A stretch of 64,000 nucleotides of DNA from Candidatus Falkowbacteria bacterium (lineage in GTDB: Bacteria > Patescibacteriota > Patescibacteriia > CAIXNZ01): assembly GCA_963774955.1 (NCBI GenBank), contig CAVZGV010000003.1, positions 386,981 through 450,980 on the forward strand. The letters run 5' to 3'. The notes under the pieces were generated by a model. It ran no database searches. It was not told where the DNA came from and saw only the letters and a list, made by a program, of their open reading frames with translations. Of this stretch, positions 36,320 to 64,000 are shown one piece after another. Made by a program: the position numbers and the translations under genes. Position 1 is the first letter of the stretch, and each line of letters opens with the position of its first letter.

Positions 36320-36429
36320 TAAATTATATAATAAAAGATTTTGGCCGCCCGTTTAGTAGAGACGCATTGCAATGCGCCTCTACCGTCCGCAACCCCATAA
36401 TTAATAGCCAAAATCATAGGTTCAAATAT

Positions 36430-46524: not shown

Positions 46525-46650
46525 GTAAATGGCCATATATGATGTTAAAGTTAATTTATAAATTAAGATAAAAAGTCCTCTGGCGGAAGAGGATTTTTTG
46601 TGGATAACTTATATTGACTACTGACTAAACAGTCAGTACAATATAAGTAT

Positions 46651-47274
46651 ATGAAAACCTCAATTATCACCCCCAGGCAAAAGCAATTACTTCAAATTAT
46701 CCATGACTGGTTAAAAACTGAAGGTAATATTCCTTCATTTGAAGAAATGAAAAATGAACTTGGCGTAAACTCAAACCAAGCAGTTTTGGATTTATTAGAG
46801 AAATTGGAGGAGAAGAAAATGATTAAAAGAAACGAAGGACTAGCAAGATCAATAAATATTTTACAAAAGGGTTATGAATCACTTGAAGTTGCGCCTTTAG
46901 TAAATGTTGTTGGATTGGGTTCATGCGGACCTTTAGTTGAATTATTTGAGCAGAAAGATGTTTGGATGGAATTATCTCCGGAAGTTCATCAGTTTTCACA
47001 TGAGTTAATTATTATTAGGGCATTTGGCGATTCCATGATTGGGGCTGGTATTATTGATGGCGATTTGTTGCTTTTTACTAAAGCTAAAGAATTTAAGGAT
47101 AATGAAATTGTATTAGCCAGAACTATGGATGGTACAACCGTTAAACGATTAATAAATCGCGATAAAAAAACATATTTTCAGCCTGAAAATCCTAAATATG
47201 AAAGAATACCCGTGACTGAAGAAACTTATATTTTAGGTAAATTAATTAAAAATTTATCAAGAAATTATGCTTAA
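46651..47274 (+). CDS. lexA: LexA-like repressor (wHTH plus S24 peptidase)
   Basis: N-terminal LTPRQKQLLQIIHDWL…PSFEEMKNELG…NQAVLDLLEKLEEKKMIKR. C-terminal S24 block AFGDSMIGAGIIDGDLLL…TVKRL (Ser/Lys dyad). Stop overlaps the next gene start by 8 nt. Confidence 0.75.
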   Translation: MKTSIITPRQKQLLQIIHDWLKTEGNIPSFEEMKNELGVNSNQAVLDLLEKLEEKKMIKRNEGLARSINILQKGYESLEVAPLVNVVGLGSCGPLVELFEQKDVWMELSPEVHQFSHELIIIRAFGDSMIGAGIIDGDLLLFTKAKEFKDNEIVLARTMDGTTVKRLINRDKKTYFQPENPKYERIPVTEETYILGKLIKNLSRNYA

Positions 47275-49210: not shown

Positions 49211-49236
49211 GCATTTAATTATTAATAATTAGGAAT

Positions 49237-50052
49237 ATGAAAGATCTTATATCTCAAATTAAACAAAGTACCATATTTCTCGGGTTTATGAGAAATAATG
49301 AACCTGTCTATGTTGGAACTGGGTTTCTTATTCAGGTTGATGATGTTTTTTATGTTGTTACGGCAAAACATGTTGTTGAAAAAAAATATAGTCAAATGTA
49401 TATATTCCTAAATAATAAAAATTTTGGTGTAAATTTTAAGTCTATTCAAGAAATACTTAATCAGGGCTGGTCATGGAAAAAACATGGTGACAATGATGTT
49501 GACATCGCTTTATTGCCATTCCCGTTAGCTCCAACTGATAAATCAAAATTTATTCCACATACTTTATTTATTCAAGAAATAGCTGACATATCAGAACTTG
49601 TAAATTTATTTTTTTTATCGTATCAGCCAGGCATCAATGAGCTAAAAAATGATTCATCAATAAATCCTATAATTAGGAAGGGCGTAATATCAAGAATTAA
49701 TTACGATAAAACTTTTTTTATGGATGGGTTTGCATTCCCTGGAAATAGCGGCAGTCCCGTATTTTTGTTGCCAACGCCTATAAAAATTCAAAATGGTTTA
49801 ATGCAAATTGGAGGGCCGGTAGAAATTAAATTGGCAGGAATAATTGGGGCATATATTCCATACAGAGATGTAGCAGTAAGTGAGCAAACCGGAGAAGTTA
49901 GAGCTATTTTTACTGAAAACACTGGGATAGCACTTGTTCACTCAACAGCTCTTCTCCAGGAGATTATTAAGGGTGAAGATTTTCAAGAACAACATAAAAA
50001 ATTGACAAAAATAAAATTGATTCCTCAGGCGGAAAAAGAGCATTCTTCTTAG
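49237..50052 (+). CDS. cytoplasmic trypsin-like (S1/chymotrypsin fold) serine peptidase
   Basis: No signal peptide. His in VVTAKHVV, Asp in VDIALLPF, Ser in FPGNSGSPVFL. Confidence 0.55.
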   Translation: MKDLISQIKQSTIFLGFMRNNEPVYVGTGFLIQVDDVFYVVTAKHVVEKKYSQMYIFLNNKNFGVNFKSIQEILNQGWSWKKHGDNDVDIALLPFPLAPTDKSKFIPHTLFIQEIADISELVNLFFLSYQPGINELKNDSSINPIIRKGVISRINYDKTFFMDGFAFPGNSGSPVFLLPTPIKIQNGLMQIGGPVEIKLAGIIGAYIPYRDVAVSEQTGEVRAIFTENTGIALVHSTALLQEIIKGEDFQEQHKKLTKIKLIPQAEKEHSS

Positions 50053-50129
50053 TAGTTGGTATCTTTATTGATATTTTATCCCTATCTGTAGCCGTAAGTG
50101 GATAATCAAAATTAACTTAATTTTATTAT

Positions 50130-50966
50130 ATGGATGAGCGATTAAATAAAATGATTCTCGATATGGGAAAGCAATATGGCGAACATGCTAAAATTTTGAG
50201 CGAAAAAGTCAATGCGGAAATGAAAAAAAATTTTAAGGTAATCCATGAGATTACAGAAAGTTTAAAAAAACAAATTGAAGATATCAGCCCCGCAATTTTA
50301 ATGGTTCAAGAATCTATTCGGCAATTTGAGGAATCTAAGGAGTTTCATAAATTTGAGCAGCAAGCGTTTAATAATAGTGGTTGGTGGATAACCCCTTCAT
50401 TAATGGAAGTTCCAGTATACAAATTCCGTAATGCTGTAATTAAATACAATAAGGGTCAAAAAATTGCTATAACTAATTTGTATATATCGATTTATCAAAA
50501 GAATAATTGTAAATATTTGGGGCAGGTATTAAATAGTTGGGATAGTAATAAATACTTTAAACCATGGATGAAAATTATAAGGCAAGCATTAGAAGCTCAT
50601 GTGGATAAAAAATATTTTCTGTCAGTACCCGCATTATTGTTAGTAGCCGAGGGTATTTCAACTAATTATTGTAAAAAAAATAAGATTAAAATTCCCTATA
50701 AAGAAAATTCAAAAGGAGGTGAGAAAATCAAAAAAGCATTAAATTATATTAAAAATAATAAAGAAATTGAATTTTTAAATGCAGATTTTTTTATACTTGC
50801 TCTTGATAATATTATCTATGCTCAGACTTATAAAATTAATAAAAAAACTTTTAAATATTTCCTTAATCGCCATGCGGTTTTGCATGGTGGAACTACAGAC
50901 TATGGCACTTTGAAGAATTCATTAAAGTGTTTTATGTTGTTAGATTTTTTAAGTATTTTAAAATAA
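50130..50966 (+). CDS. hypothetical protein (278 aa), partner of the trypsin-like peptidase
   Basis: No recognisable motif. AT-rich. Its stop abuts the HsdS start (50966/50967). Confidence 0.5.
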   Translation: MDERLNKMILDMGKQYGEHAKILSEKVNAEMKKNFKVIHEITESLKKQIEDISPAILMVQESIRQFEESKEFHKFEQQAFNNSGWWITPSLMEVPVYKFRNAVIKYNKGQKIAITNLYISIYQKNNCKYLGQVLNSWDSNKYFKPWMKIIRQALEAHVDKKYFLSVPALLLVAEGISTNYCKKNKIKIPYKENSKGGEKIKKALNYIKNNKEIEFLNADFFILALDNIIYAQTYKINKKTFKYFLNRHAVLHGGTTDYGTLKNSLKCFMLLDFLSILK

Positions 50967-52292
50967 ATGACTTACTCAATAATCCCCAAATCCCACTTGG
51001 AAGGCGCTCTGCGTCTAGACCCGGAATACTATCAGCCGGAGTATTTGGAATTGATAAAAAAACTCGAGAAGTTGACTGATAAAAAATTGAAAGATTATGC
51101 TATTAACATTTCCAGGGGGTTTAAACCAATCAAGGGCGACTTTTTTAATTATATTGAAATATCAGAAATTGATTTAGGGAATGGTACTTTTAATGAATCT
51201 AAAATTCTAGGTGAGGAAGCACCGGATAGGGCGCAAAAAGTTGTAAAAGAGGGCGACGTTATTGTGTCTACTGTCAGGCCTAATAGAAATGCTGTTTCTT
51301 TGATCAGGGCAGAGCATAACAATTTTGTTGCTTCGAGCGGTTTTTGCAATATTGAACCTCGAAAAGTTTCTTCAGAGTATTTATTCGCTTATCTAAAAAC
51401 TAATCATGTTATAAAGCTATTGGACAGATTGACTTCCGCAAGCATGTATCCCGCGGTAACAGAGGAAGACATAATGAATTTACCTTTTTATGTTAAAAAT
51501 GAGCAAGCTATTATTAAATTAGTAAAAGAAGTTTTTGAGCAAATTGAGAAATCGAAATCGCTTTACGCCCAAGCCGAAGATTTACTGCTTGAAGAATTGG
51601 GTATTAATGATTTGGAATCAGAAGAAGATTTAACTTTTACAGCTACTTTAAAGGATTGCCTGCAAGCTGTTCGTATTGATGCTGATTTTTTTCAGCCGAA
51701 GTATGAGAGGATTTTAAGTAAAATAAAAGTTAAAAGGGAGAAATTAAGTAATTTAGTTTCTTTACAAAAGGGGATTGAGCCAGGCAGTGAAGAATATGCG
51801 GAAGAAGGCAAGCCGTTTATTCGCGTATCCAATATGTCCAAGTTCGGCTTAAATGATAATAATCAGCAATATTTGAGCGAGAAAATGTATAATGAATTGA
51901 AAGATAAATATCAGCCTCAAAAGGGAGATATTTTATTAAGTAAGGATGCGACTCCTGGCATTGCGGTTTTACTAGAAAAAGATGTTGAGGGTATTATCTC
52001 TGGCGGTACTTTACGATTAAAAATAAAAGATAAAACTTTAGTTCCTCAATACTTATCTTTAGTTTTAAATTCTGTAATTTGCCAAATGCAAATCGAAAGA
52101 GATGCTGGTGGGTCAATTATTATTCACTGGAGACCTGATCAAGTGGAAAATACAATTATTCCTATTTTACCCATCAAAATCCAGCAAAAAATTGCTGATT
52201 TGGTCAGTGAATCTTTTAAGTTAAGAAAAGAGGCCAAGGAACTACTAGAAGAAGCGAAAAAGAGGGTGGAGGAGGAGATTGAGAAGAAATAA
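50967..52292 (+). CDS. hsdS: restriction-modification specificity subunit (HsdS-like, two TRDs)
   Basis: GDVIVSTVRPNRNAV, YPAVTEEDIMNLPFYV, IPILPIKIQQKIADLV and a C-terminal coiled-coil spacer. 441 aa. Confidence 0.7.
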   Translation: MTYSIIPKSHLEGALRLDPEYYQPEYLELIKKLEKLTDKKLKDYAINISRGFKPIKGDFFNYIEISEIDLGNGTFNESKILGEEAPDRAQKVVKEGDVIVSTVRPNRNAVSLIRAEHNNFVASSGFCNIEPRKVSSEYLFAYLKTNHVIKLLDRLTSASMYPAVTEEDIMNLPFYVKNEQAIIKLVKEVFEQIEKSKSLYAQAEDLLLEELGINDLESEEDLTFTATLKDCLQAVRIDADFFQPKYERILSKIKVKREKLSNLVSLQKGIEPGSEEYAEEGKPFIRVSNMSKFGLNDNNQQYLSEKMYNELKDKYQPQKGDILLSKDATPGIAVLLEKDVEGIISGGTLRLKIKDKTLVPQYLSLVLNSVICQMQIERDAGGSIIIHWRPDQVENTIIPILPIKIQQKIADLVSESFKLRKEAKELLEEAKKRVEEEIEKK

Positions 52293-52295
52293 ATA

Positions 52296-52320
52296 AAAAT
52301 CTCATCTAAAATATTTTTTA
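52296..52320. repeat. REP-like intergenic motif AAAAATCTCATCTAAAATATTTTTTA (copy 1)
   Basis: Variants at 54369-54395, 54714-54740, 55689-55715, 59652-59688 (CCCCTAAGGGG variant), 60718-60745 and 62154-62181. Always sits between a stop and the next start. Confidence 0.6.
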
Positions 52321-52336
52321 AAATAACTAAAAATCT

Positions 52337-53923
52337 ATGGAAGCAGGTAAGAGAAACATCTCAGATATATTTAATCGCGCGCATAAATTATCAGTCCCTC
52401 ATTTTCAGCGAGCGTATGTTTGGGATGAGGAACAGTGGGAAAGATTTTTGGAGGATGTGGACTATGCTTCACGGGCAAATCCCCCTTATTTTATGGGGTC
52501 TATTATCTTGAAACAGCAAGAGACTACAATTAAGCAAGGCGATATACGTACAATTATTGATGGCCAGCAAAGATTGACGACATTTATTTTATTCTTTAAA
52601 GTACTCTATGATAAGCTAGGATTACCCGAAAAATTTAAGGAAATTTTCACCACTTTTGGCGGTGATATAATTCTGGAACATAATTATTCCGACAGGCCAA
52701 TCTTTGAAAAAATTTTACTGGGTGATGAATTGGGTAAAAAGGAAAAGAAGACAAGAATTTATAAATGTTATGATTATTTTTTGAATAATATTGATGAAAA
52801 AGTAATTAGCCCCAATAACTTACTGTCAAATATATTATTTGTGGGTATTGAGTTGCAATATCATGAAGATGAGCAGCAAATTTTTGATACTATTAATTCA
52901 TTGGGTGTTAGACTGACAACTGCCGAATTGTTGAAGAATTATTTATTTAAGGATGATCTTGATTTTTATAATAAGAATTGGCGCGATGTATTTGAAAAAG
53001 AGGATGAAATTAAGGAATACTGGGACCAGGGAGTAACTTCCGGCCGAAATATTAGAAATAATATTGACCTATTCTTGCAGTCTTATTTATTTATTAAGAT
53101 TCAAGAGAAAGACATTAATGTGAGCTCTGAGGATAAAGAACGTTATTTTAAGATTGATTCCGTTTTTAATTCGTATAAGGAATTCATGAATAAATACAAA
53201 CAGGATAGGGATTCGATCATCAATGAGTTAAAGGATTATGCGCTTATTTATAAGGATACTATTAATCCCGAAATTGTTGAGCAAGATTTAAATGCAGATG
53301 ATTATGTGCAGCGGATAAACTTGGTAATGTTTGGATTAGATACTGCAACGATTATTCCATATGTGCTGTATGTATCCAAAAAAGTGAGAGATGAGGAGGA
53401 AAAAAATAAGATTTTTAGATATCTTGAAGCGTATTTGATGAGACGGCTTGTTTCGAAAAAAACTACTAAAAATTACAATCAATTATTTAGGGGTTTTATT
53501 AATAATGAGATTGATACATTGGAAAAATTAAAGGATGCAATTGAGAAAAAGGGCGAAAAGATTAATAATATGCCAACAGACAATGATGTAATGGAGGGCG
53601 TAAATAAATCCCAGCTAACTAATAAACAAGCAAGGGGCATCCTTTATTTGATTGAGAGGTCAATCAGAAGCGATCTAAACGCTACTGAGCTAAAATTTCT
53701 TAATGAATATAGTCTTGAACACGTAATGCCAAAGAAATGGAGGAATAATTGGGGAGGTAATGAATTAACTGATGAACAGAAAAAAGAGCGAGATGATATA
53801 TTGTTGACATTGGGTAATTTGACATTAATTACTAAAAAATTAAATTCGTCAATTAGAGATTCTGACTGGCAGAAAAAGAAAAAGGGTAGGGGAAGCCATA
53901 AAGGATTGCTAGAGTATGCTTAA
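52337..53923 (+). CDS. GmrSD-like Type IV restriction enzyme (DUF262 ParB-like N-domain plus DUF1524 His-Me C-domain)
   Basis: N-terminal …HFQRAYVW…IIDGQQRLTT (DGQQR). C-terminal …LEHVMPKKW…LGNLTLI (His-Me finger-like). Confidence 0.6.
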   Translation: MEAGKRNISDIFNRAHKLSVPHFQRAYVWDEEQWERFLEDVDYASRANPPYFMGSIILKQQETTIKQGDIRTIIDGQQRLTTFILFFKVLYDKLGLPEKFKEIFTTFGGDIILEHNYSDRPIFEKILLGDELGKKEKKTRIYKCYDYFLNNIDEKVISPNNLLSNILFVGIELQYHEDEQQIFDTINSLGVRLTTAELLKNYLFKDDLDFYNKNWRDVFEKEDEIKEYWDQGVTSGRNIRNNIDLFLQSYLFIKIQEKDINVSSEDKERYFKIDSVFNSYKEFMNKYKQDRDSIINELKDYALIYKDTINPEIVEQDLNADDYVQRINLVMFGLDTATIIPYVLYVSKKVRDEEEKNKIFRYLEAYLMRRLVSKKTTKNYNQLFRGFINNEIDTLEKLKDAIEKKGEKINNMPTDNDVMEGVNKSQLTNKQARGILYLIERSIRSDLNATELKFLNEYSLEHVMPKKWRNNWGGNELTDEQKKERDDILLTLGNLTLITKKLNSSIRDSDWQKKKKGRGSHKGLLEYA

Positions 53924-54065
53924 GGAATTGAGATATTTTCAAAATATTTACAGAAGGAGTCATGGGGTGAGGAGGGAATAAAGGAACGCGCAAATGAACT
54001 TTATGATTATATGGTTAAGAATGTTTGGAACTTGAAGTTTTAAAAAACAGAGGAATTTTATATTT

Positions 54066-54365
54066 ATGATAAAAGCTATCAGTATGAATGATGAGGGCAG
54101 GGTTAAGAATTTTATTCAAAGCAACCATTGGATTTTCGCTAAAACTTATGCTAAGACTGCTCCTCACGAATATGTCTGTCGGGATTATCTTGATGACTCA
54201 ATGAAAAATGAATTTGTTTGGTTTGTTGAATTTATCAGAAAAAACGGAAACCCGGAAAAGTTTTTCAATTCAGAATATATTTATTTTCCTATCGACGGAT
54301 ATAAATACTGGACTATGGGTAATCCAATTGACGAAACTACTATTATAAATAGAGCGATTGTTTAA
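54066..54365 (+). CDS. hypothetical small protein
   Basis: 99 aa. Flanked on both sides by the REP-like motif. Confidence 0.4.
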   Translation: MIKAISMNDEGRVKNFIQSNHWIFAKTYAKTAPHEYVCRDYLDDSMKNEFVWFVEFIRKNGNPEKFFNSEYIYFPIDGYKYWTMGNPIDETTIINRAIV

Positions 54366-54397
54366 AATAAAAATCACATCTAAAATATTTTTTAGAT

Positions 54398-54715
54398 ATG
54401 TCGAAAAATCCTAATAAACAATTCATTGTTAATTTACAGGAGATGCAACTCGAGCGGGTTTGTTTTATAAAAATATCAGTCAGTAAGTCTCAGATTATTA
54501 AAAGAATCGGAGCCAAGCTTAGTGCGGAGATTTTAAGCCATGTCAAACCAATGAAGCTTTATGGCGTGAGCCGATATTTATACGCGGATATTAAAAAATA
54601 TTTAAATAAGACCAGTCAGGGCAGGGATTTGTTTATAGAACTCGTCGGCGGACAATCGTGTTTTTTGCCTCCAATCAATAAACATAGACAGGGGAAGCTA
54701 TTTATTAAGTCATAA
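54398..54715 (+). CDS. hypothetical small basic protein
   Basis: 105 aa. Flanked on both sides by the REP-like motif. Confidence 0.4.
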   Translation: MSKNPNKQFIVNLQEMQLERVCFIKISVSKSQIIKRIGAKLSAEILSHVKPMKLYGVSRYLYADIKKYLNKTSQGRDLFIELVGGQSCFLPPINKHRQGKLFIKS

Positions 54716-54737
54716 AAATTTCATCTAAAAAATTTTT

Positions 54738-55340
54738 ATGAAAAAACTCTCCCATCTCCTCATCCTCACCACCCTCATCCTCACCCTCACCGCCTGTTCT
54801 GAAGCGGGGACACTGGTTGTTAATACTAACCAGTGTCGGGATGTGGAATTGGCCAAACCAAATATTAATCAAATAGTTGCGCCTGAAAATAATGTTCCGG
54901 AACCTGTTTCTGATTTATACCCTGTGACCAAAGTCGTTGACGGCGATACCATCGATGTAAATATTGACGGCACAGTTGAGAGGATCAGGTTGATCGGCAT
55001 TGATACTCCGGAAATAGTTGATCCCAGAAAACCCGTGGAATGTTTCGGACTTGAGGCTTCCAATAAAGCCAAGGCAGTTTTGACCGGCCAACAAGTCAGA
55101 TTGGAAAAAGATAATTCTCAGGCCAATCGGGATGTTTATAATCGTTTGTTACGATACGTCTTTTTGGCTGACGGTATAAATTTTAATAAGATGATGATTG
55201 AACAGGGTTATGCTTATGAATATACTTATGACCTGCCCTATAAATACCAGACAGAATTTAAACAAGCGCAAAAATATGCGCAGGACAATAAATTAGGGCT
55301 TTGGCAGGATAATGTTTGCCCGGGTACGACATTAAAATGA
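54738..55340 (+). CDS. lipoprotein thermonuclease (SNase-like)
   Basis: Lipobox LTLTACSEA. VVDGDTIDVNIDG…RIRLIGIDTPE SNase active-site region. Confidence 0.7.
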   Translation: MKKLSHLLILTTLILTLTACSEAGTLVVNTNQCRDVELAKPNINQIVAPENNVPEPVSDLYPVTKVVDGDTIDVNIDGTVERIRLIGIDTPEIVDPRKPVECFGLEASNKAKAVLTGQQVRLEKDNSQANRDVYNRLLRYVFLADGINFNKMMIEQGYAYEYTYDLPYKYQTEFKQAQKYAQDNKLGLWQDNVCPGTTLK

Positions 55341-55395
55341 GGTTTGACGTATTTAAAATAATTTTAAAGATAAAAATCTGCCTTTTCATGTTATT

Positions 55396-55714
55396 TTTCA
55401 TTGAAAGAGAATGATGATTTTGGCCAATCGGAAGGTAGAGACACGGTTAACCGTGTCTCTACAGAACGTAAATTCGGTTCAGTCCCGCCAAAATCATTGT
55501 CATCAATTGTTAATACATTTAAAGGCGGCGTAACCCGTCGTTGTCATGAAAATAAATTGGATTTCAAATGGCAATCAAATTATCACGAACATATCATCCG
55601 CGACGAGGACGATTATGCCCGGATCTGCGAATATATCCGCTGTAACCCGGGTAAATGGTCTGAAGATCGAAATAATCCTTTAAATATAAAAAATCTCATC
55701 TAAAATATTTTTTA
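55396..55714 (+). mobile_element. 5'-truncated copy of the IS200/RAYT-type HuH transposase gene, about 99% identical to the 3' ~320 nt of copy 61600-62181
   Basis: Encodes …DFGQSEGRDTVNRVSTERKF…WQSNYHEHIIRDEDDYARI… (catalytic-Tyr region) but lacks the HVH motif. Ends in the REP-like motif. Confidence 0.6.
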
Positions 55715-55754
55715 AAATTTCAGTCAGCTATTTTAGGTCTGTTGATAAAAAATT

Positions 55755-55795
55755 TGACACTATATTTAAGTGTGGTATAATAATACCACACCTTT
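55755..55795 (+). promoter_or_regulatory. strong sigma70 promoter with an operator-like inverted repeat overlapping -10
   Basis: TTGACA, 16-nt spacer, TATAAT. GTGTGGTA…TACCACAC 8-bp inverted arms span the -10 box. Directly upstream of the XRE-family gene. Confidence 0.55.
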
Positions 55796-55815
55796 AATTT
55801 ATAAAAAAAATCGCT

Positions 55816-56196
55816 ATGCCAAACGCTAATTTAAAAAAATTCGGCGAGCTTTTGAAAGCTTTAAGAATGAAGCAGGATTTAAGCTTGCGGGACGTATGCA
55901 AAAAGGTTAATTATGACCCCAGCAACTGGAGCAAGATTGAAAGAGGTATGATTTCTCCGCCCAGCGAGGAGGTTGTTTTAGGCCAATGGGCATTGGCCTT
56001 AGGTCTGGCCAAAGAGAGCAAAGAGTATTATGAATTTATTGATTTGGCCAATATTGCCCAGGGCATTATTCCGGATTACATTATGCAGGAAAAAGACTTG
56101 GTCAGAGCTTTGCCGGCTTTTTTCAGGACGGTTAGAAATGAAAAACCGACCAAAAAAGAGATTGACGATTTAATCAATCTGATTAAGAATAATTAG
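55816..56196 (+). CDS. XRE-family HTH transcriptional regulator
   Basis: LKALRMKQDLSLRDVCKKVNYDPSNWSKIERG (HTH_3). Confidence 0.65.
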   Translation: MPNANLKKFGELLKALRMKQDLSLRDVCKKVNYDPSNWSKIERGMISPPSEEVVLGQWALALGLAKESKEYYEFIDLANIAQGIIPDYIMQEKDLVRALPAFFRTVRNEKPTKKEIDDLINLIKNN

Positions 56197-56203
56197 GAAA
56201 TTA

Positions 56204-56779
56204 ATGCAAACACCTTATTTCAAAAATCAGGAGCTTAAGCACAAAGCTGATGAGTTCAGAATTAAGCATTGGGGCAATGATGTGCCGGTAGATATTGAGC
56301 AGATTATTGAAGTTAAGCTGGGTATGGATATTATTCCGGTTCCCGGTTTATATAAACAATGCAATACCGATGCTTTGATTTCTTCGGACTGGAAGACGAT
56401 TTATGTGGATAATGATAATTATATTGATGACAGATGTTATAACCGCATTCGTTTCTCTTTGGCGCATGAAATCGGCCATTTTATTTTGCATCAGGAGCTT
56501 TATGCATCTTTTGGCATTATGAGCGTTGAGGATTTTTATAATATAATTGATGGGTTAAATAATGATTATGGGATAATTGAAGGCCATGCCAATCGCTTTG
56601 CCAATTTTTTGCTGGTACCGAGAGAAAAATTGGAAATTGAAAAGGTCAAAGCCTTGCAAGCCCACCCCGAAATAAAGGAATTGGAAGCTGCAACTGTAAA
56701 TTCCTACATTGCTATTCCCTTAAGTAAAATATTTGAGGTTAATGAAGGAGTCGTGGAAATTAGCCTAAATAACAAATAA
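56204..56779 (+). CDS. ImmA/IrrE-family metallopeptidase
   Basis: HExxH in SLAHEIGHFILH. Immediately downstream of the XRE gene, the classic ImmR/ImmA arrangement. Confidence 0.65.
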   Translation: MQTPYFKNQELKHKADEFRIKHWGNDVPVDIEQIIEVKLGMDIIPVPGLYKQCNTDALISSDWKTIYVDNDNYIDDRCYNRIRFSLAHEIGHFILHQELYASFGIMSVEDFYNIIDGLNNDYGIIEGHANRFANFLLVPREKLEIEKVKALQAHPEIKELEAATVNSYIAIPLSKIFEVNEGVVEISLNNK

Positions 56780-56802
56780 AGAGTTTATTTTAAAATACCC
56801 CT

Positions 56803-57553
56803 ATGACCCAATACTATAACCCCAACCGCGCCCCAGACTGGAACTATGGCGGGAAAAATTGGAAACTGTCACGATCAAAAATTGACCTTTTTGTAGAGTG
56901 TCCCAGATGTTTTTATGTTGATAATAAACTTGGCACCAAACGACCACCAGGATTTCCGTTTAATATAAATTCAGCAGTTGATAAATTATTGAAGCAAGAA
57001 TTTGATGTTCATCGCTCCAATGGCACTCAGCACCCATTGCAAAAAAAATATAAAATTGACGCAGTACCTGCCCCGCATGAAAGCATTGATATTTGGCGGG
57101 ATAATTTTAAAGGCGTTTCAATATTTGCATAAAGCTACCGGCATGACCATCTCCGGCGCGATTGATGATCTTTGGATTAATTCAAAGGGCGAATATATGG
57201 TGGTTGATTATAAAGCCACTGCAAAGGAAGAGGCCGTGACAGAACTTGATCAGGAATGGCAAGATGGTTATAAACGCCAAATGGAAGTTTATCAGTGGTT
57301 ATTGCGTAAAAATAAATTAAAAGTCTCTAATACCGGCTATTTTGTTTATTGTACCGGCCGTACAGACGTTGAGGCATTTGACGGTAAAATAGAATTTAAT
57401 GTAAATGTGATTCCTTATACAGGTTCTGATAAATGGGTTGAAAAAACCATTAAAGAAACTCATAAATGTTTGGAAAATAATAAAATCCCTTCTTCAGGCG
57501 CTGATTGTGATTATTGTAAATATGTGGATGCGAGGAATAAGTATGTTAAGTAG
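56803..57553 (+). pseudogene. Cas4/RecB-like PD-(D/E)xK nuclease with Cys cluster, split by a frameshift (ORFs 56803-57132 and 57002-57553)
   Basis: N-terminal …FVECPRCFYVD. Core IDDLWINSKGEYMVVDYK (D…E.K) plus QMEVYQWLL (QxxxY). C-terminal C-x12-CDYC. The two ORFs overlap in different frames; the frame switch falls between ~57060 and 57130, downstream of an A8 run at ~57043. Confidence 0.45.
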
Positions 57554-57629
57554 AAATCTCATCCCCAAAGCCAATCCCAATTGCGCTTATTGCAATTATC
57601 GGTCAGAGGCAAGGGAAGTGGAGGAATAA
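57543..57629 (+). CDS. candidate 28-aa Cys-containing peptide (MLSRNLIPKANPNCAYCNYRSEAREVEE)
   Basis: ATG preceded by GAGGAATAAGT. Overlaps the stop of the Cas4-like gene. Lies ~40 nt upstream of the rSAM/SPASM gene. Contains CAYC. Confidence 0.25.
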   Translation: MLSRNLIPKANPNCAYCNYRSEAREVEE

Positions 57630-57667
57630 AAATTTTATTTAAAATATTTTCAAAACAATTTTTTAAG

Positions 57668-59653
57668 ATGAATAATGATGATCCAAAATTAAAATTTCTC
57701 TCGCTAGAACTCTCGCCCGAATGCGACCAGAACTGTAAGCATTGTTATGCTAATTCATTGAAGTCTCAGGTTGAAAATATACTTACCTTTGAACAATGGC
57801 TTGACGTTATTAAGGCTGCTAAAAAAATAGGTTGTGAAGAAATACGCTTAACCGGTGGGGAGCCAACACTTAGTCCTTATTTTTTTAAAATAATAAAAGC
57901 CGCTCATCAAATAGGTCTTAAAATTGGCTTTAATACTCACGGCGTTCTTAGTAATGCAATTTTGGCTAAAATAGTCAGCGCTGCGCCTGAGAGGATTTTT
58001 ATCAGTTTTGAGGGCTCGCCAAAGACTGATGCGGAAATAAGGGGCAAGAAACATTTTCAGCGGGCGTTTAATAGTGCAAAGTTTTTAAAACAGGCGGGGC
58101 TTGAGGTGTTGATGAATGTACATTTAAGAAAGAGTAATTATCGAGAAATTGAAAAGTTGTCCAAAATAGCGGTTGAAAATAATTTTATTCTCAAATTGCC
58201 ATTTCTTCGTCCAATTGGGCGAGCCGCAGAATGCCTGACTGAAGAAATATTAAATCCAGATCAAACCTTGGTTGTTGCTAAGGAAACAGAAAGAGTTAAA
58301 ATTAAATATCCTGCTTTAAAAATAACAAGCGATTACCAACTGCTAGGTGATGTTCAGCAGCATATGCTGAATCATTGTCCTGCCGGGATAGTTTCTATCC
58401 ATATTAATCCTGATGGCACTGCTTTCCCCTGTGGTTTTATGAGAGCAGATGATTTTAAGTTGGGAAATATTAAAAAAATTTCTTTGAAACAAATTTGGTT
58501 TAAATCGCCACTGTTAATTAAAATGAGAAAGGTTACGGGGGCACCAAAATGTCAGCATTGTGAATATTTTAAAAGTAAATGTTCTGGACCTGCTAGATGC
58601 TTTTCTTATTACCTTAATGGTAAGTTATTCAGCGATGATCCAATTTGTTTTGCCAAAAGTAAGAGTGAAGAAATTGGACTTGAATTTTTAAAGAAGAAAG
58701 TAGGCAGGTTGCCCAAAAAAGAAAGGGAATTATTTAATAAAATATTTGATTTGAAAATAGATAAATCTGAAAAAGGGGATAACATTATAAGTTTAAGAAA
58801 CAAAATTGAAATGACTCAAGGGATTTATAATGTAGCTTCAAGACAGGGGAGACCCATTGATCCTGTAAAGTTAAAAAAAATCAGAAAACTTTGTGACCAG
58901 GTATCTGATTGTAAGATTTGTAAAAAAGGCCGGGGGAAACAGCAGTTTTTAGATGCTTTGCCCGGAGCTTATACCAAACATCATAAGGTTTTGTTTTTTG
59001 ACAAACACAATCCCACCAATATAACGCCATCATTGGTTACTGCTTGTTTAAAGGCATCCGTTTGCTGGTCTCAAAAAGAAGCTTTTCAAAAGAAGAAATA
59101 TTATCCTTATATATTTTGGAATACGTTAATCGGGTCTGAAATCCATGGCCATGCGCATTTGATTTTAGCGGAAGATCTGCAATTTGCTGAAGTTGAAGAT
59201 CTTTCAATCAAAGCCAAATCGTTTGGTGAAATTAAAGGCAAGAATTATTGGGAATCTTTATTTAAAGCCCATTTATTAGTCGGTTTGGCAAAACAAGTAG
59301 GGCGATTTAAATATTTTATGAATCTTGTCCCTAAATCGTCAAGGGAAATTTTTATCTTTGGCAAAACCGGCTTGGATGAAATGGCAATAACTAGTTTATC
59401 GCTGCTAGTTTCAAAAATTTGTCAGAATTGGATTAATCGAACACCCTTTAGGGTGCCGGCGCTAAGTATTTTTATAAGTTATCCTTTGCCCCAGAAAGTA
59501 AACAAGGACAAATTAACTATTGTCCGAATTGTTGATAGAAGATATCCGTTATTGGGAAAGACTGACAGAGGTACGGTTGAAGAATTTGCTTTTAAGGTTG
59601 TGACACATGATCCCTTTGAGGAATGGAAACAATTAGAAAAAACGCTTAAATAA
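57668..59653 (+). CDS. radical SAM/SPASM-domain protein fused to a C-terminal HIT-like (His-triad) domain
   Basis: ATG 57668 (MNNDDPK…). CDQNCKHC (CxxxCxxC), LTGGEPTL. SPASM Cys pattern CPAGIVSIHINPDGTAFPCGF…CQHCEYFKSKCSG…C. C-terminal …GSEIHGHAHLIL (HxHxHxx). Confidence 0.6.
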   Translation: MNNDDPKLKFLSLELSPECDQNCKHCYANSLKSQVENILTFEQWLDVIKAAKKIGCEEIRLTGGEPTLSPYFFKIIKAAHQIGLKIGFNTHGVLSNAILAKIVSAAPERIFISFEGSPKTDAEIRGKKHFQRAFNSAKFLKQAGLEVLMNVHLRKSNYREIEKLSKIAVENNFILKLPFLRPIGRAAECLTEEILNPDQTLVVAKETERVKIKYPALKITSDYQLLGDVQQHMLNHCPAGIVSIHINPDGTAFPCGFMRADDFKLGNIKKISLKQIWFKSPLLIKMRKVTGAPKCQHCEYFKSKCSGPARCFSYYLNGKLFSDDPICFAKSKSEEIGLEFLKKKVGRLPKKERELFNKIFDLKIDKSEKGDNIISLRNKIEMTQGIYNVASRQGRPIDPVKLKKIRKLCDQVSDCKICKKGRGKQQFLDALPGAYTKHHKVLFFDKHNPTNITPSLVTACLKASVCWSQKEAFQKKKYYPYIFWNTLIGSEIHGHAHLILAEDLQFAEVEDLSIKAKSFGEIKGKNYWESLFKAHLLVGLAKQVGRFKYFMNLVPKSSREIFIFGKTGLDEMAITSLSLLVSKICQNWINRTPFRVPALSIFISYPLPQKVNKDKLTIVRIVDRRYPLLGKTDRGTVEEFAFKVVTHDPFEEWKQLEKTLK

Positions 59654-59789
59654 AAATCTCATCCCCTAAGGGGCAGGCTAAAAAATTTACTTGTGGATAA
59701 GGCAGCTTGTATTCGGTTTTTGTTCGGGTTATAATTAATCATGGAATGTACTAACATTCTATTGTTAATTATTTAAAATCAGAAAGTAT

Positions 59790-60236
59790 ATGAAAATAAA
59801 TGATAAAATCGCCTTGTTTGAAGGCAAAACAATACGACGACATTGGGATGAGGAAAAAGAAAAATGGTATTTCTCGGTGGTGGATATTGTTGGGATTTTA
59901 AGTGAAAGCGCTGATCCGAGAAATTATTGGAAAGTTCTTAAAAATCGCCTTAAAGCAGAAGGTAGTGAGTTGGTTACAAAATGTAACCAACTGAAATTTT
60001 TGGCTAATGACGGTAAATATTATCTTTCCGATGCCGCTGATACCGAAACCTTGTTGCGTCTTATCCAGTCTGTGCCTAGTCCCAAGGCCGAGCCGGTTAA
60101 ACTATGGCTGGCAAAAGTCGGCTATGAAAGAATTCAAGAAACATTAGACCCTGAAAAATCTATAAATAGAGGTCGAGTAACTTGGCAAAGAATGGGTCAT
60201 AGTCAAAAATGGATCTTGGCAAAGATCGTAAATTAG
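59790..60236 (+). CDS. Bro-N-domain (phage antirepressor-like) protein
   Basis: IALFEGKTIRRHWDEEKEKWYFSVVDIVGIL fits the Bro-N pattern. Confidence 0.45.
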   Translation: MKINDKIALFEGKTIRRHWDEEKEKWYFSVVDIVGILSESADPRNYWKVLKNRLKAEGSELVTKCNQLKFLANDGKYYLSDAADTETLLRLIQSVPSPKAEPVKLWLAKVGYERIQETLDPEKSINRGRVTWQRMGHSQKWILAKIVN

Positions 60237-60366
60237 ACCGTTGGCAGGGACATGATGATAAAATAACAAAAAACAAATTCCAAATAACAAATAAATCTCA
60301 AATAACAAATATATAAATAACAAACGTTTGGTATTTGAGGTTTGGCTAATGTAATTTATTTGTGAT

Positions 60367-60745
60367 TTGATGCTTGAAATTTGGGATTTCAATATCATGC
60401 CCAATCATGTACACGTTGTTTTTTTATTGAAAGAGAATAATGATTTTGGCCAATCGGACGGTAGAGACACGGTTAACCGTGTCTCTACAGAACGTAAATT
60501 CGGTTCAGTCCCGCCAAAATCATTGTCATCAATTGTTAATACATTTAAAGGCGGCGTAACCCGTCGTTGTCATGAAAATAAATTGGATTTCCAATGGCAA
60601 TCAAATTATTACGAACATATCATCCGTGATGAAGACGATTATGCCCGCATTAAGGAATACATTTTCTGTAATCCCGGCAAATGGGCAGAAGACCGCAATA
60701 ATCCCATTAATATTAAATAAAAATCTTATCTGAAATATTTTTAAA
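60367..60745 (+). mobile_element. diverged, 5'-truncated copy of the IS200/RAYT-type transposase gene
   Basis: Retains MPNHVHVVF (HuH) and …WQSNYYEHIIRDEDDYARI. Lacks the first ~70 codons. Ends in a variant REP-like motif. Confidence 0.55.
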
Positions 60746-60777
60746 TATTATAACGTGAAATTATGTTGAATAAGACT

Positions 60778-61581
60778 ATGTCCAGCGAAGCGGAATCCCG
60801 CGTCTCGGGAAAAAAACTCGGATTGATCATATTGCCAATGTTGATCTTAATTATTTCAGGTTGCAGTCTGCCTTGGCAGGCGCCGCAACAGGTTGGCTGC
60901 GACCTGGACGCCAAACTTTGTCCGGATGGATCAGCTGTCGGCCGTAGCGGACCAAACTGCGAGTTTGCGGCTTGCCCGCAGATTGATATCAACCCTGCGA
61001 TTACTGATTTTAATTCCTGTTCCGCGGCCGGTTATCCGATTATGGAAAGTTATCCCCGACAATGCCGGGCTAATGGCCGGACTTATACGGAAAGATTGAT
61101 TGATAATAACAGCTCTAGTTGCACGATTAGTCCTAATTGCCAGCTGCCAATGGATTATGCGGTTCGTTCTAATTGTCCATACCAAGCTTATTGTTATAAT
61201 CAAAAATGCGTAGTCGGCTGTCCGTTATGGGATGAACCAACAAATTCTTGGGAGGTAAAATGTTCGGTTGATAAAGATTGTAATTGTGCTGCCTGGAATG
61301 AACAGGAAAATTATACTTGCGCTTGTGTGGACGGCCAATGCGCTTCTATTGTCTCCGGTCCAAGTTCTGAACAACCTGGTCCGGCCGCAGGCGATTATGC
61401 TGCTGATTGTCTCAAAAACAATGGTAATTGGCTGGAACAATATCGTGAGTGTGAATATAGCAGCCAAACCTGGTGTGATCAGGCTGGCGGTGTGTTTAAA
61501 GAATGTGAATCAGCTTGCCGCCATGATCCGCAGGCACAAATGTGCACCTTGCAATGCGTGCCCGTGTGCCAGTTGAAATAA
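60778..61581 (+). CDS. secreted Cys-rich lipoprotein
   Basis: ATG 60778 (MSSEAE…LILIISGCSLP). More than 30 Cys. Confidence 0.5.
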   Translation: MSSEAESRVSGKKLGLIILPMLILIISGCSLPWQAPQQVGCDLDAKLCPDGSAVGRSGPNCEFAACPQIDINPAITDFNSCSAAGYPIMESYPRQCRANGRTYTERLIDNNSSSCTISPNCQLPMDYAVRSNCPYQAYCYNQKCVVGCPLWDEPTNSWEVKCSVDKDCNCAAWNEQENYTCACVDGQCASIVSGPSSEQPGPAAGDYAADCLKNNGNWLEQYRECEYSSQTWCDQAGGVFKECESACRHDPQAQMCTLQCVPVCQLK

Positions 61582-61599
61582 AAACCTCAAAAAATAAAA

Positions 61600-62181
61600 A
61601 TGGATCGTGAATATTTTAAAAATCAATACCGTACCTCAACCAATCGGTTAAATTGTTGGGATTATAATTTGGCGGCAAAGTATTTTGTGACCATTTGCAC
61701 CCATGACCGCCAATGTTGCCTCGGTGAAGTCAAGAACGACAAGGTTATTTTGTTGGAGATTGGGAAGATGGTTTTTGAGGATTTGATGAATATACCCAAA
61801 TTACGCCCATATGTGTTGGTGGATGATTATGTCATCATGCCGAATCATGTACACATTGTTTTTTTATTGAAAGAGAATAATGATTTTGGCCAATCGGACG
61901 GTAGAGACACGGTTAACCGTGTCTCTACAGAACGTAAATTCGGTTCAGTCCCGCCAAAATCATTGTCATCAATTGTTAATACATTTAAAGGCGGCGTAAC
62001 CCGTCGTTGTCATGAAAATAAATTGGATTTCAAATGGCAATCAAATTATCACGAACATATCATCCGCGACGAGGACGATTATGCCCGGATCTGCGAATAT
62101 ATCCGCTGTAACCCGGGTAAATGGTCTGAAGATCGAAATAATCCTTTAAATATAAAAAATCTCATCTAAAATATTTTTTAA
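61600..62181 (+). mobile_element. tnpA: intact IS200/IS605-family (RAYT-like, Y1 HuH) transposase gene (CDS 61600-62169) plus 3' REP-like motif
   Basis: 189 aa with HuH motif MPNHVHIVF and catalytic-Tyr region WQSNYHEHIIRDEDDYARICEYIRCNPGKW. Contains a perfect 28-bp palindrome GTAGAGACACGGTTAACCGTGTCTCTAC (61901-61928). Confidence 0.7.
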
Positions 62182-62198
62182 TAATTAATTTTATCAGT

Positions 62199-62444
62199 AT
62201 GCAAATTCCTTTTATTTTAATGGCAGTGATTGCGGTGACGATTATTGTCCTGCTGGTTGTTTTTTTAAAAAAAGGAAAACCTCAACCTTTGACACCCTTA
62301 ACCAGTCTGGCTTTTGTTTTAATTATTGCCGGAATAATCGGTAATTCCGTACTGGATAACAGATTTATCAGTTATGGGTTATTTGGTTTGGGCGTGGTTT
62401 TGGCGGTAATTGATATTGCGCTCAAGGCCAGAAAACAAAAATAA
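62199..62444 (+). CDS. small membrane protein
   Basis: Two TM helices. 81 aa. Confidence 0.4.
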   Translation: MQIPFILMAVIAVTIIVLLVVFLKKGKPQPLTPLTSLAFVLIIAGIIGNSVLDNRFISYGLFGLGVVLAVIDIALKARKQK

Positions 62445-63885: not shown

Positions 63886-63948
63886 AATCTTTAACCGCTT
63901 AGGCCATCAGGCTTAGGCGGTTTTATAATTCAGCTGATTTTGTATTGA

Positions 63949-64000
63949 AAGAGCATGATGATTTTGGCCAACCGGAAGGTAGAGACACGGTTAACCGTGT
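63949..64000 (+). mobile_element. start of a further 5'-truncated IS200/RAYT-type copy (runs off the window)
   Basis: TTGAAAGAGCATGATGATTTTGGCCAACCGGAAGGTAGAGACACGGTTAACCGTGT begins at the same internal breakpoint as copy 55396. Confidence 0.5.

Follow-up and report, generated by a model that had tools for sequence, protein, structure and literature searches.

What is the short AT-rich repeat that recurs through a 10-kb cluster of anti-phage genes in an uncultured, ultra-small member of the Parcubacteria (Candidatus Falkowbacteria)? The repeat is 26–35 bases long, lies at the stop codon of about half of the genes in the cluster, and points in a single direction throughout. The original prediction for the 64,000-nt stretch of DNA analysed here (the window) had offered two readings, a REP/BIME-like element accompanying RAYT-type transposase genes or a compact terminator-promoter element. 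Our analysis suggests that the motif most likely marks seams where gene modules were joined.

The motif is real. The 26-mer occurs three times exactly (52295, 55689, and 62155), with one mismatch at 54369 and with three at 60719, while the number expected by chance is zero and none appeared in 100 shuffles. The earlier claim of a repeated motif is thus borne out, with coordinates correct to within 1 nt. The core AAATCTCATC, searched with at most one mismatch and followed by the AT-rich half or CCCC, was located at 52297, 54371, 54716, 55691, 57554, 59654, 60721, and 62157, in each case on the + strand. Repeat finding gave a family (D2) with a 35-nt unit and eight copies, one of which (57635) is a self-overlap shifted by 12 nt; the seven distinct copies include a diverged one at 57623. 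A position-weight scan recovered only its seven training copies (34.8–43.9 bits); the next-best match in the window, a − strand site, reached 17 bits, and 0–2 matches at ≥15 bits came from 20 local shuffles. The tally comprises seven short copies, one long variant, one solitary left half, and one weak copy (Table 1); all of these fall within 52.3–62.2 kb and on the + strand, and the scan gave no copy in the remaining 52 kb of the window.

Table 1. Motif copies, RAYT-like genes, and the GTAG palindrome in the window.
Feature	Position	Strand	Remarks
Copy 1, short form	52290..52324	+	directly 3' of HsdS stop; GmrSD start 12 nt on; exact 26-mer; D2 reference copy; 43.9 bits
Copy 2	54364..54398	+	3' of 99-aa ORF stop; ATG 3 nt past motif; 1 mismatch; 40.7 bits
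Copy 3, diverged	54709..54743	+	its TAA is the stop of 105-aa ORF; adjoins ATG of SNase lipoprotein gene; 36.1 bits
RAYT fragment A, 5'-truncated	55385..55703	+	repeat families D1, D3
Copy 4	55684..55718	+	3' end of RAYT fragment A; ORF stop is TAA within motif; exact 26-mer
Left half alone, TAG AAATCTCATC	57551..57563	+	at PD-(D/E)XK gene stop; 3' relic of second PD-(D/E)XK allele directly after
Copy 5b, diverged	57623..57657	+	closes PD-(D/E)XK relic; 10 nt before radical-SAM ATG (57668); 34.8 bits
Long form	59651..59688	+	left half, CCCTAAGGGGCAGGC (4-bp GC hairpin), right half; begins with radical-SAM stop; upstream of Bro-N promoter
RAYT fragment B, 5'-truncated	60385..60720	+	identical to database protein P0012
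Copy 7	60714..60748	+	begins with stop of RAYT fragment B; Cys-rich lipoprotein gene 14 nt on; 3 mismatches; 38.5 bits
Weak, diverged motif-like gap TAAAAACCTCAAAAAATAAAA	61579..61599	+	between lipoprotein gene and intact RAYT; read from sequence, below position-weight threshold
Intact RAYT-like Y1 HUH gene, 189 aa	61600..62169	+	Pfam, NCBIfam, PDB matches
Perfect 28-nt GTAG...CTAC palindrome	61901..61928		within RAYT coding sequence; repeat-finder entries I2–I4, I11–I13
Copy 8	62150..62184	+	3' end of intact RAYT-like gene; stop is TAA within motif; exact 26-mer; 41.4 bits
RAYT fragment D, 5'-truncated	63929..64000	+	repeat family D3; runs off window end

The unit of ~35 nt is laid out as (AAA)TAA AAATCTCATC TAAAATATTTTTT(AA) and supplies stop codons in two to three reading frames, and the 26-mer contains no G. 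The variant noted earlier at 59652 was confirmed; this long form is built from the ordinary left and right halves with the 15 nt CCCTAAGGGGCAGGC inserted between them. The terminal inverted repeats that characterise MITEs are absent from the motif, and a direct repeat (TAAAAAT...TAAAAT) around CTCATC is suggestive only as a target-site duplication. Copies behind unrelated genes, namely those for HsdS, the 99-aa ORF, the 105-aa ORF, PD-(D/E)XK, radical SAM, RAYT, and the lipoprotein, are identical at 22–28 of 29 positions.

All copies begin 0–5 nt from the upstream ORF's stop codon, which six of them supply with their own TAA or TAG. The spacing to the next start ranges from 0 to 130 nt; the next ATG lies within 0–18 nt in five copies and at 100–130 nt in two, with a separate canonical promoter between. 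Because the motif is anchored at the stop while its distance to the start varies, it belongs to the end of the upstream gene. The copies had been described as often abutting both neighbours, which holds for the stop codon at every copy but for the start codon only at 54716. The proposal that the motif fills nearly every intergenic gap of the island proved too strong: 8 of the 14 gaps in 52.3–62.2 kb hold a clear copy and one a weak copy, but none of the five gaps in the 46.6–52.3 kb part of the same low-GC island does, and no other tight operon junction of the window has the motif. A weaker idea, that of an island-specific punctuation at gene boundaries, survives, in that the motif is tied to the upstream 3' end and coincides with synteny breaks.

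Such punctuation could act on RNA. In polycistronic operons lacking Shine-Dalgarno sites, its stop-codon cluster and its AU-rich, G-free spacer would favour termination and re-initiation, S1-type initiation, or RNase processing, and the copies would resemble one another through common descent or gene conversion. This fits a motif that is co-oriented with all genes and closes two to three frames, with five copies lying 0–18 nt from the next start, and it fits the distribution of GGAGG sites, which are found at many core genes and at none of the island genes. The 26-mer, moreover, can be regarded as unstructured, since it lacks G and its folding energies are no better than those of shuffled controls. 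We nevertheless consider this explanation rather doubtful. The motif is anchored to the stop codon and not to the start. Of the ~14 copies seen across the window and its relatives, five lack a nearby co-directional gene downstream and are followed instead by a promoter, a convergent gene, or a terminator. Two copies in the relative L071 lie between convergent genes, and therefore serve no downstream gene; a normal hairpin terminator directly follows one of them. The motif is also missing from the orthologous hsdS junction of the relative L202, as it is from the window's other tight operon junctions, and near-identical 26-mers behind unrelated genes are not explained by function alone.

It is very unlikely that the motif is a compact sigma-70-type promoter and/or an intrinsic terminator, as the original prediction had allowed. 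The motif does hold a TAAAAT and a run of six T, and one copy scores 9/12 in the promoter scan (55679–55706), but this is a single weak match and no −35 element is conserved in the motif. None of the 19 terminator-like sites that the terminator scan returned in the window is a motif copy, and no stable hairpin was found. RNA folds of the canonical copies range from −0.5 to −2.6 kcal/mol with AT pairs only, and their z-scores (0.07 to 0.73) stay near zero; copy 3 alone has a significant hairpin, itself AT-only. Elsewhere the window uses canonical TTGACA-N16-17-TATAAT promoters and terminators made of a GC hairpin and a T-run, and it does so even directly after motif copies: separate promoters scoring 10–12 of 12 follow copies 4 and 6, the one after copy 4 being a canonical TTGACA (55754) ... 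TATAAT promoter that scores 12/12 at 55754–55781. The normal terminator behind one L071 copy points the same way.

The REP/BIME reading can draw on the four RAYT copies or fragments that share the same 10 kb, with three motif copies at RAYT 3' ends; the motif would then form a REP/BIME (REPIN) family mobilised by the neighbouring RAYT. The intact protein scores 22 bits against Pfam Y1_Tnp (cut-off 23) and 64.8 bits against NCBIfam REP_Tyr_transpos (NF047646; cut-off 80). Among PDB entries it resembles E. coli TnpA-REP most closely (4ER8, E=1.7e-5), and the alignment pairs up the HUH and Tyr motifs. With its HVH and YHEH motifs the protein is RAYT-like, though under the curated thresholds, and it is the only DNA-transaction enzyme found near the motif array. 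REPs carry a GTAG/GTGG (or CGTC) tag 0–2 nt from a GC-containing stem of 7–20 bp and commonly form inverted pairs (PMC6006769; PMC3733652; PMC2817692), and they are located mainly between unidirectional and convergent ORFs (PMC3733652). Like REP/BIME/REPIN sequences with a RAYT, our motif is short, intergenic, mostly 3' of coding regions, and near RAYT-like genes; unlike them, it is free of G, lacks a stable stem, keeps one orientation, and is locked to the stop codon.

All of the structural features of REPs are missing. The motif contains neither the GTAG/GTGG (or CGTC) tag nor a basal stem of 7–20 nt with a GC-rich base and a loop of 2–5 nt, and mismatch, core, and position-weight searches of the window gave no inverted pairs and no copies on the − strand. 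Nor is the REPtron arrangement, a RAYT gene flanked by the repeat, seen here: a weak copy precedes the intact RAYT gene and a full one follows it, and the two are in direct, not inverted, orientation. The truly REP-like sequence of the locus is a distinct one, the 28-nt GTAG palindrome of the RAYT family itself, which recurs at 55435–55462, 60461–60488, and 63979 to the end of the window, with a relic of one mismatch at 36356–36383. A link between the motif and the transposase copies likewise failed to emerge when it was checked: in motif-bearing genomes, about half of the RAYT 3' ends carry the motif (four of eight), as compared to ~40% of other island gene ends. Six of the 10 RAYT-family 3' ends examined lack it, as do two further RAYT genes in the relative L203 and most RAYT homologues in relatives, and in the JAPLYG genome it was found at none of the three RAYT genes seen, yet at three non-RAYT genes. 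We regard a REP/BIME origin as extremely improbable.

The comparison covered only ~130 kb of sequence from four genomes. In two related Parcubacteria MAGs the motif occurs at orthologous gene ends with different genes downstream, while a third relative (L202) has no motif. Shared blocks stop at the 3' edge of the motif at 52329, 55720, 57658, and 60751, and at 62194, 10 nt past the edge. At copy 1, the block shared with L048/L203 ends at 52329, and that shared with the motif-less L202 at the motif's 5' edge (52300). A BLAST block shared with L071 begins at 57561 and ends at 57658 after copy 5b; another ends at 60751 after copy 7. Between 57551 and 57657, the left half and a full copy enclose what is left of the 3' end of a second PD-(D/E)XK allele. 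In the window as in L203 the motif stands at the end of hsdS, and the genes that follow are unrelated. In L203 a two-gene insert separates hsdS from msrB, with a short-form copy on one side and a long-form copy on the other, both pointing the same way. Downstream genes differ at two junctions compared by protein and at the hsdS junctions read from called genes; among the junctions compared, none had identical neighbours both with and without the motif.

Alternatively, the copies may be relic ends of mobile DNA with no present function, a reading that we hold to be unlikely. The motif would be either the right end of a RAYT-carrying unit, left behind after deletion of the gene, or what remains, without its hairpin, of a tiny hairpin-bearing dispersed repeat (the long form) whose target would be TAAAAT just past stop codons. 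This is in line with the presence of the whole motif within the repeated RAYT unit, the A/C and B/L071 similarities ending just past it, and with the series of RAYTs that are truncated 5' and intact 3' (A, B, and D, a 45-nt 3' relic in L203, and three 3' ends in L204). However, solo copies show no RAYT coding remnant and their joint is exact at a foreign stop codon in six cases, unlike random decay. The RAYT counts given above also speak against it, the four of eight in motif-bearing genomes being much like other island genes and the JAPLYG motifs sitting at non-RAYT genes only. Also in its favour, comparing filled orthologous ends with motif-less ones (L202 hsdS, L071 P0001) shows a difference of ~12–13 nt, AAAAATCTCATCT, between TAAAA repeats. 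Four lineages have long forms whose hairpins differ while their position is the same; outside the window this architecture recurs in L048/L203 (twice), L071, and L077, the last having its own 22-nt version three times in 2.2 kb. The AT-rich alignments of "empty" sites are, however, ambiguous, and a unit of 13–22 nt has neither terminal inverted repeats nor end hairpins of the IS200 type.

Several known systems share features with this array. Integron attC sites, imperfect palindromes of 57–141 nt, adopt a single-stranded fold; they contain R''/L''-L'/R' boxes as well as a GTT crossover point and need the tyrosine recombinase IntI next to attI. As in integron cassettes, the motif stands at ORF 3' ends, often overlapping the stop, in one orientation and at variable distance to the next ORF, in an array of unrelated, mostly promoterless genes whose content differs between relatives. 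Unlike attC, its unit is unstructured and measures 26–35 nt, and the scanned ORFs of the window gave no Phage_integrase or recombinase match. In the dif-like (pdif) modules of Acinetobacter plasmids and in Xer-dependent integrated elements, sites of ~28 bp bracket one- or two-gene modules that are shuffled between replicons; pdif sites consist of two 11-bp Xer-binding arms and a 6-bp spacer and occur in alternating orientation. Our motif likewise consists of short sites bracketing discrete one- or two-gene modules, but lacks such arms and keeps a single orientation. IS200/IS605 ends require subterminal hairpins of ~8–10 bp at both ends (PMC6006769). The array resembles these ends and their miniature derivatives (PATEs) in encoding a Y1 HUH enzyme and in the small hairpin followed by ~5 nt in the long forms, and insertion of the IS200/IS605 type, which is orientation-specific and without inverted repeats, would fit the motif. 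In contrast to such ends, the short form has no hairpin, and that of the long form is limited to 4 bp of GC, with a sequence that varies from lineage to lineage.

We favour, tentatively, reading the motif as a junction sequence (a 3' tag) shared by gene modules that form a cassette-like array within a variable defence island. Every module would end with the ~35-nt unit described above, which would close the upstream frame and leave a G-free, unstructured AU-rich spacer before the next element. Modules would be gained, lost, and swapped by recombination at or beside the motif, either site-specific or by short homology between the repeats, and the copies would then be direct repeats because modules were exchanged there. 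We infer both the recombination at the motif and its role in multiplying it. The copies keep one orientation and are locked to stop codons, they are conserved at orthologous gene ends whose downstream genes differ, shared sequence stops at the motif edges, and gene relics are bracketed by motif halves. The near-identity of copies behind unrelated genes calls for a copying or joining process at the DNA level. The island itself is made up of independent defence systems, and the GC content of its genes (28–47%) fits a mosaic origin.

Other findings speak against the cassette-like array. No integrase or recombinase was found among ~50 window ORFs with Pfam, PADLOC, or PHROGs, and the motif shows no attC-like fold and no clear inverted binding arms. 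Motif-free island junctions (MTase to HsdS, M23 to LexA) also vary among relatives, which keeps synteny breaks at the motif from being specific proof. In two genomes the lipoprotein gene comes with the motif and in a third without, so gene and tag do not always move together. One orthologous pair of motif copies, that at the PD-(D/E)XK relic and its L071 counterpart, is more diverged (~73%) than the adjacent coding sequence (87%).

A bolder form of the proposal, which we consider quite improbable, is that CPR bacteria assemble defence islands much as integrons assemble cassettes, but without an integron integrase. The hairpin-less core of ~30 nt at each stop codon would be the site at which single-gene cassettes are inserted and excised, and the putative agent would be a single-strand HUH enzyme (Y1, RAYT-like) or an unrecognised recombinase. 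If true, this would give co-oriented arrays whose content differs between close relatives.

We found that the 26- to 35-nt AT-rich motif is a real, lineage-restricted and orientation-locked gene-end repeat, which adds a novel form to the short intergenic repeats of bacteria. A search of the window returned three exact copies of the 26-mer AAAAATCTCATCTAAAATATTTTTTA and two near-exact ones, dinucleotide shuffles of the window gave no match to it, and relaxed searches added four more copies (see table). A weight matrix trained on seven short copies scored these training copies at 34.8–43.9 bits and found no other site above 17 bits on either strand of the 64 kb; the repeat noticed in the original prediction stands. 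All copies lie on the + strand, in the interval 52.3–62.2 kb. The accompanying claim that they occupy nearly every gap is overstated, because the motif fills 9 of the 14 gaps in this interval, eight of them clearly and one weakly, and none of the five at 46.6–52.3 kb of the same low-GC block.

Aligned on its left half, the motif reads (AAA)TAA AAATCTCATC followed by a right half TAAAATATTTTTT(AA). In six copies the upstream ORF stops at the TAA (TAG once) that opens the left-half 13-mer, and in two the native stop lies 4–5 nt upstream of it; two RAYT copies that were recently duplicated have a small deletion that extends the ORF to the TAA of the right half. Every copy puts stops in two or three reading frames, and the 26-mer is free of G. 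Long forms carry a small hairpin of lineage-specific sequence and CAGGC-like bases between the halves. The next start codon follows within 0–18 nt in five copies and at 100–130 nt, with a separate canonical promoter between, in two; since this distance varies, the motif is tied to the upstream gene's end rather than to the downstream start.

A degenerate 23-mer had 53 single matches among 185,579 species genomes, all attributable to chance except L048, a locus in a relative. An exact 21-mer had 17 single matches in JGI metagenomes, essentially by chance, with locus L063 possibly related, and a 14-mer had single chance matches only in viral contigs. Because these scans gave essentially chance matches, the motif is confined to a narrow lineage. 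Bro-N homologues were uninformative as a guide to it, being too widespread (7,376 matches), and the closest contig lacks the motif. A more distant Parcubacteria contig, L077, carries within 2.2 kb three copies of a 22-nt repeat of its own, CCCCAAAGGGGTCTGTAAAGAC; of these, two directly follow stop codons, and two have TAAAAAT and T[AG]AAAT on their flanks, which is the layout of the long form.

The motif had been read as a possible REP/BIME-like element. REPs have a GTAG/GTGG tag 0–2 nt from a 7–20-bp stem with a GC-rich base, and inverted pairs are usual (PMC6006769, PMC3733652, PMC2817692). In contrast, the motif lacks the tag, the GC-rich-based stem and the inverted pairs, and folding its canonical copies yields −0.5 to −2.6 kcal/mol, not better than for shuffled sequences, so that this reading is poorly supported. 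The same is true of the proposed terminator–promoter element: no motif copy is among the terminator-like sites of the window, and promoter scanning matched just one copy, at 9/12. TTGACA/TATAAT promoters and hairpin/T-run terminators are clearly used by the organism elsewhere. Rfam gave no match at E<=1 over 46–64 kb. By eye, the motif loosely resembles an IHF site, an UP element, dif arms, Helitron CTRR ends and T7-type promoters, resemblances to which we give no weight as evidence. A punctuation role at the RNA level would suit a G-free, unstructured sequence rich in stops; we consider it rather doubtful, as some copies have no downstream gene, the motif is restricted to the island, and the copies are nearly identical.

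The source is an uncultured member of the Parcubacteria, with Parcubacteria MAGs as closest relatives. The block at 46.6–62.4 kb is a defence island with a GC content of 35%, as compared to 41% over the window's first 46 kb; single island genes range from 28 to 47%. Its genes are, in order, a LexA-like repressor, a type I methyltransferase (PADLOC E=1e-183), a trypsin-like protein, a 278-aa protein, HsdS, GmrSD (type IV restriction), two small ORFs, an SNase lipoprotein, HTH plus ImmA/IrrE, a PD-(D/E)XK nuclease, a radical SAM/SPASM protein, Bro-N and a Cys-rich lipoprotein; the island also holds one intact and three 5'-truncated RAYT-like genes. Scans of window ORFs detected neither an integrase nor any other recombinase, and a search of unannotated island ORFs against PADLOC and PHROGs gave none either. 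GmrSD (52337–54065) appears frameshifted, its C-terminus running on to 54050 in another frame, as does the PD-(D/E)XK nuclease (56803–57553), split into 56803–57132 and 57002–57553, and from these frames the island looks in part to be decaying.

GGAGG ribosome-binding sites accompany many genes of the first 46 kb and almost never occur in the island (46600–62400); GC-hairpin plus T-run terminators occur within the first 46 kb, and the island genes are packed without them. The expression "dialect" of the island is different from that of the core. The DnaA-box consensus TGTGGATAA is present four times in the window (0.63 expected), always on the + strand and in the island. Twice, at the LexA-like and Bro-N genes, a canonical promoter has its −35 hexamer 6–8 nt downstream of the box, and in three relatives island genes are likewise preceded by this layout. 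In the interval from the truncated Bro-N gene to RAYT fragment B there is an imperfect inverted repeat of 49 nt, 71% complementary, which includes several AAATAACAAA-like units.

For near-identical 26- to 35-mers to stand behind genes that are unrelated, DNA must have been copied or joined, and every junction that we compared has different downstream neighbours. At L048/L203 (JAPLYG01), the same short motif (23/23 nt) follows the orthologous hsdS end and is succeeded by unrelated genes, and a long-form copy closes a two-gene insert between hsdS and msrB. At L071 (JAPLYC01), diverged copies, two of them between convergent genes, stand behind hsdR, PD-(D/E)XK and one RAYT gene, and the long form marks the 5' limit of a Bro-N module (95% identical). 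L202, from another relative, has the LexA–methyltransferase–...–HsdS backbone in common, with merely an AT-rich spacer after hsdS, and the block shared with it ends at 52300, the 5' edge of the motif. Other shared blocks end at the 3' edge (52329, 55720, 57658, 60751) or 10 nt beyond it (62194). What remains at 57561–57658 is the 3' part of a second PD-(D/E)XK allele, a relic with a motif left half on one side and a complete copy on the other.

Because it is locked exactly to foreign stop codons, has a single orientation, coincides with homology end points and brackets gene relics with its parts, the motif may best be read as the junction, or 3' tag, of a cassette-like gene array, a best fit that comes from a small sample and that we put forward tentatively; the mechanism is one that we infer. 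The motif is like integron attC sites in position, but attC structure and an integrase are missing. Against a cassette array, the island also varies at motif-less junctions, and tag and gene do not always travel together.

A co-occurrence of the motif with RAYT-type transposase genes had also been noted. The intact RAYT-like protein (189 aa) has HUH and Tyr motifs and E. coli TnpA-REP as its best solved relative, and scores under the NCBIfam and Pfam cut-offs. We found no enrichment of the motif at RAYT-family 3' ends, as it is present at 4 of 10 (A, B and C in the window, RAYT1 of L071) and absent from six; L203 has two further RAYT genes without the motif and three non-RAYT genes with it. 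RAYT is therefore one island gene among others, with or without motif, and the motif as RAYT right end is rejected as the main explanation. It is unlikely that the motif is a relic of mobile-element ends: the 5'-truncated RAYT copies form a series and filled and empty sites apparently differ by 12–13 nt, but the joints are exact and RAYT ends are not enriched for the motif.

RAYT decay proceeds from the 5' side, and four copies or fragments lie within 10 kb of the 0.57-Mb genome. Fragments A and D have a common 5' limit about 45 nt upstream of a GTAG palindrome; fragment B extends upstream of that limit by about 30 nt. Site-specific cutting after ATC, considered for A, B and the PD-(D/E)XK relic, was dropped since MAFFT does not bear out the hand alignment of fragment A.

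Coordinates of the motif copies and associated features in the window and in loci of relatives
Feature	Locus	Position	Strand	Basis
Motif, exact 26-mer	window	52295, 55689, 62155	+	window search
Motif, 1 mismatch	window	54369	+	window search
Motif, 3 mismatches	window	60719	+	window search
Diverged motif copy	window	54713	+	relaxed search
Motif left half alone	window	57551-57563	+	relaxed search
Diverged full motif copy	window	57623-57657	+	relaxed search
Motif variant with CCCCTAAGGGG	window	59651-59688	+	relaxed search
Weakly motif-like gap	window	61579-61599	+	sequence comparison
22-nt repeat	L077	186-224, 1932-1970, 2172-2210		
RAYT fragment A	window	55385-55703		
RAYT fragment B	window	60385-60720		
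RAYT fragment D	window	63929-64000		
Further RAYT fragment	window	36334-36389		
Shorter RAYT 3'-end relic	L203	14322-14366		
Shorter RAYT 3'-end relics	L204	4597-4657, 9475-9535		
GTAG palindrome	window	55435-55462, 60461-60488, 61901-61928, 63979-64000		
GTAG palindrome, relic	window	36356-36383		
GTAG palindrome	L071	7816, 10302		
GTAG palindrome	L048	679, 3138		
GTAG palindrome	L073	4959		
GTAG palindrome	L074	10293		
GTAG palindrome	L077	10296		
GTAG palindrome	L018	2291		
DnaA-box consensus	window	46599, 50600, 56404, 59692	+	
DnaA box + promoter	L072	9236-9393		
DnaA box + promoter	L202	3669-3775, 7120-7238, 7896-8024, locus end		
DnaA box + promoter	L203	5850-5941		
Imperfect inverted repeat	window	60248-60402		
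Candidate riboswitch or leader	L071	7543-7916		

Every RAYT copy carries in its coding sequence the perfect 28-nt palindrome GTAGAGACACGGTTAACCGTGTCTCTAC, which is the cognate REP-like sequence of the RAYT-like protein and differs from the AT-rich motif. A perfect GTAG...CTAC palindrome lies between the HUH and Tyr motifs of every RAYT-like ORF of the clade, where it encodes GRDxVNRVST; the REP-like element is thus within its own transposase gene. Its inner arms vary among homologues (ACACGG/CCGTGT, ACGCGG/CCGCGT, ACAGGG/CCCTGT, GGGACAGGT/ACCTGTCCC), and since the palindrome is kept perfect with different inner arms, this amounts to compensatory change. Free-standing copies are also found in intergenic DNA. 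The RAYT papers that we read make no mention of a palindrome inside RAYT coding sequence. At L071, a long structured-looking leader with GC-rich segments, between a TTGACA/TATAAT promoter and a 149-aa ORF, ends in a GTAG palindrome with an outer inverted repeat on its flanks; it might be a riboswitch or leader.

If the motif were merely a lineage-specific spacer or relic, its interest would be local; even then, an AT-rich repeat beside a RAYT-type gene need not be a REP, and the REP-like GTAG palindrome lies within the transposase gene in this RAYT clade. If it is truly a recombination junction, it would show how the streamlined genomes of ultra-small Parcubacteria (~0.57 Mb here) build up and renew their sets of anti-phage genes with neither integron nor phage integrases of the usual kind, and it would provide a simple marker of variable cassettes in metagenome-assembled genomes.
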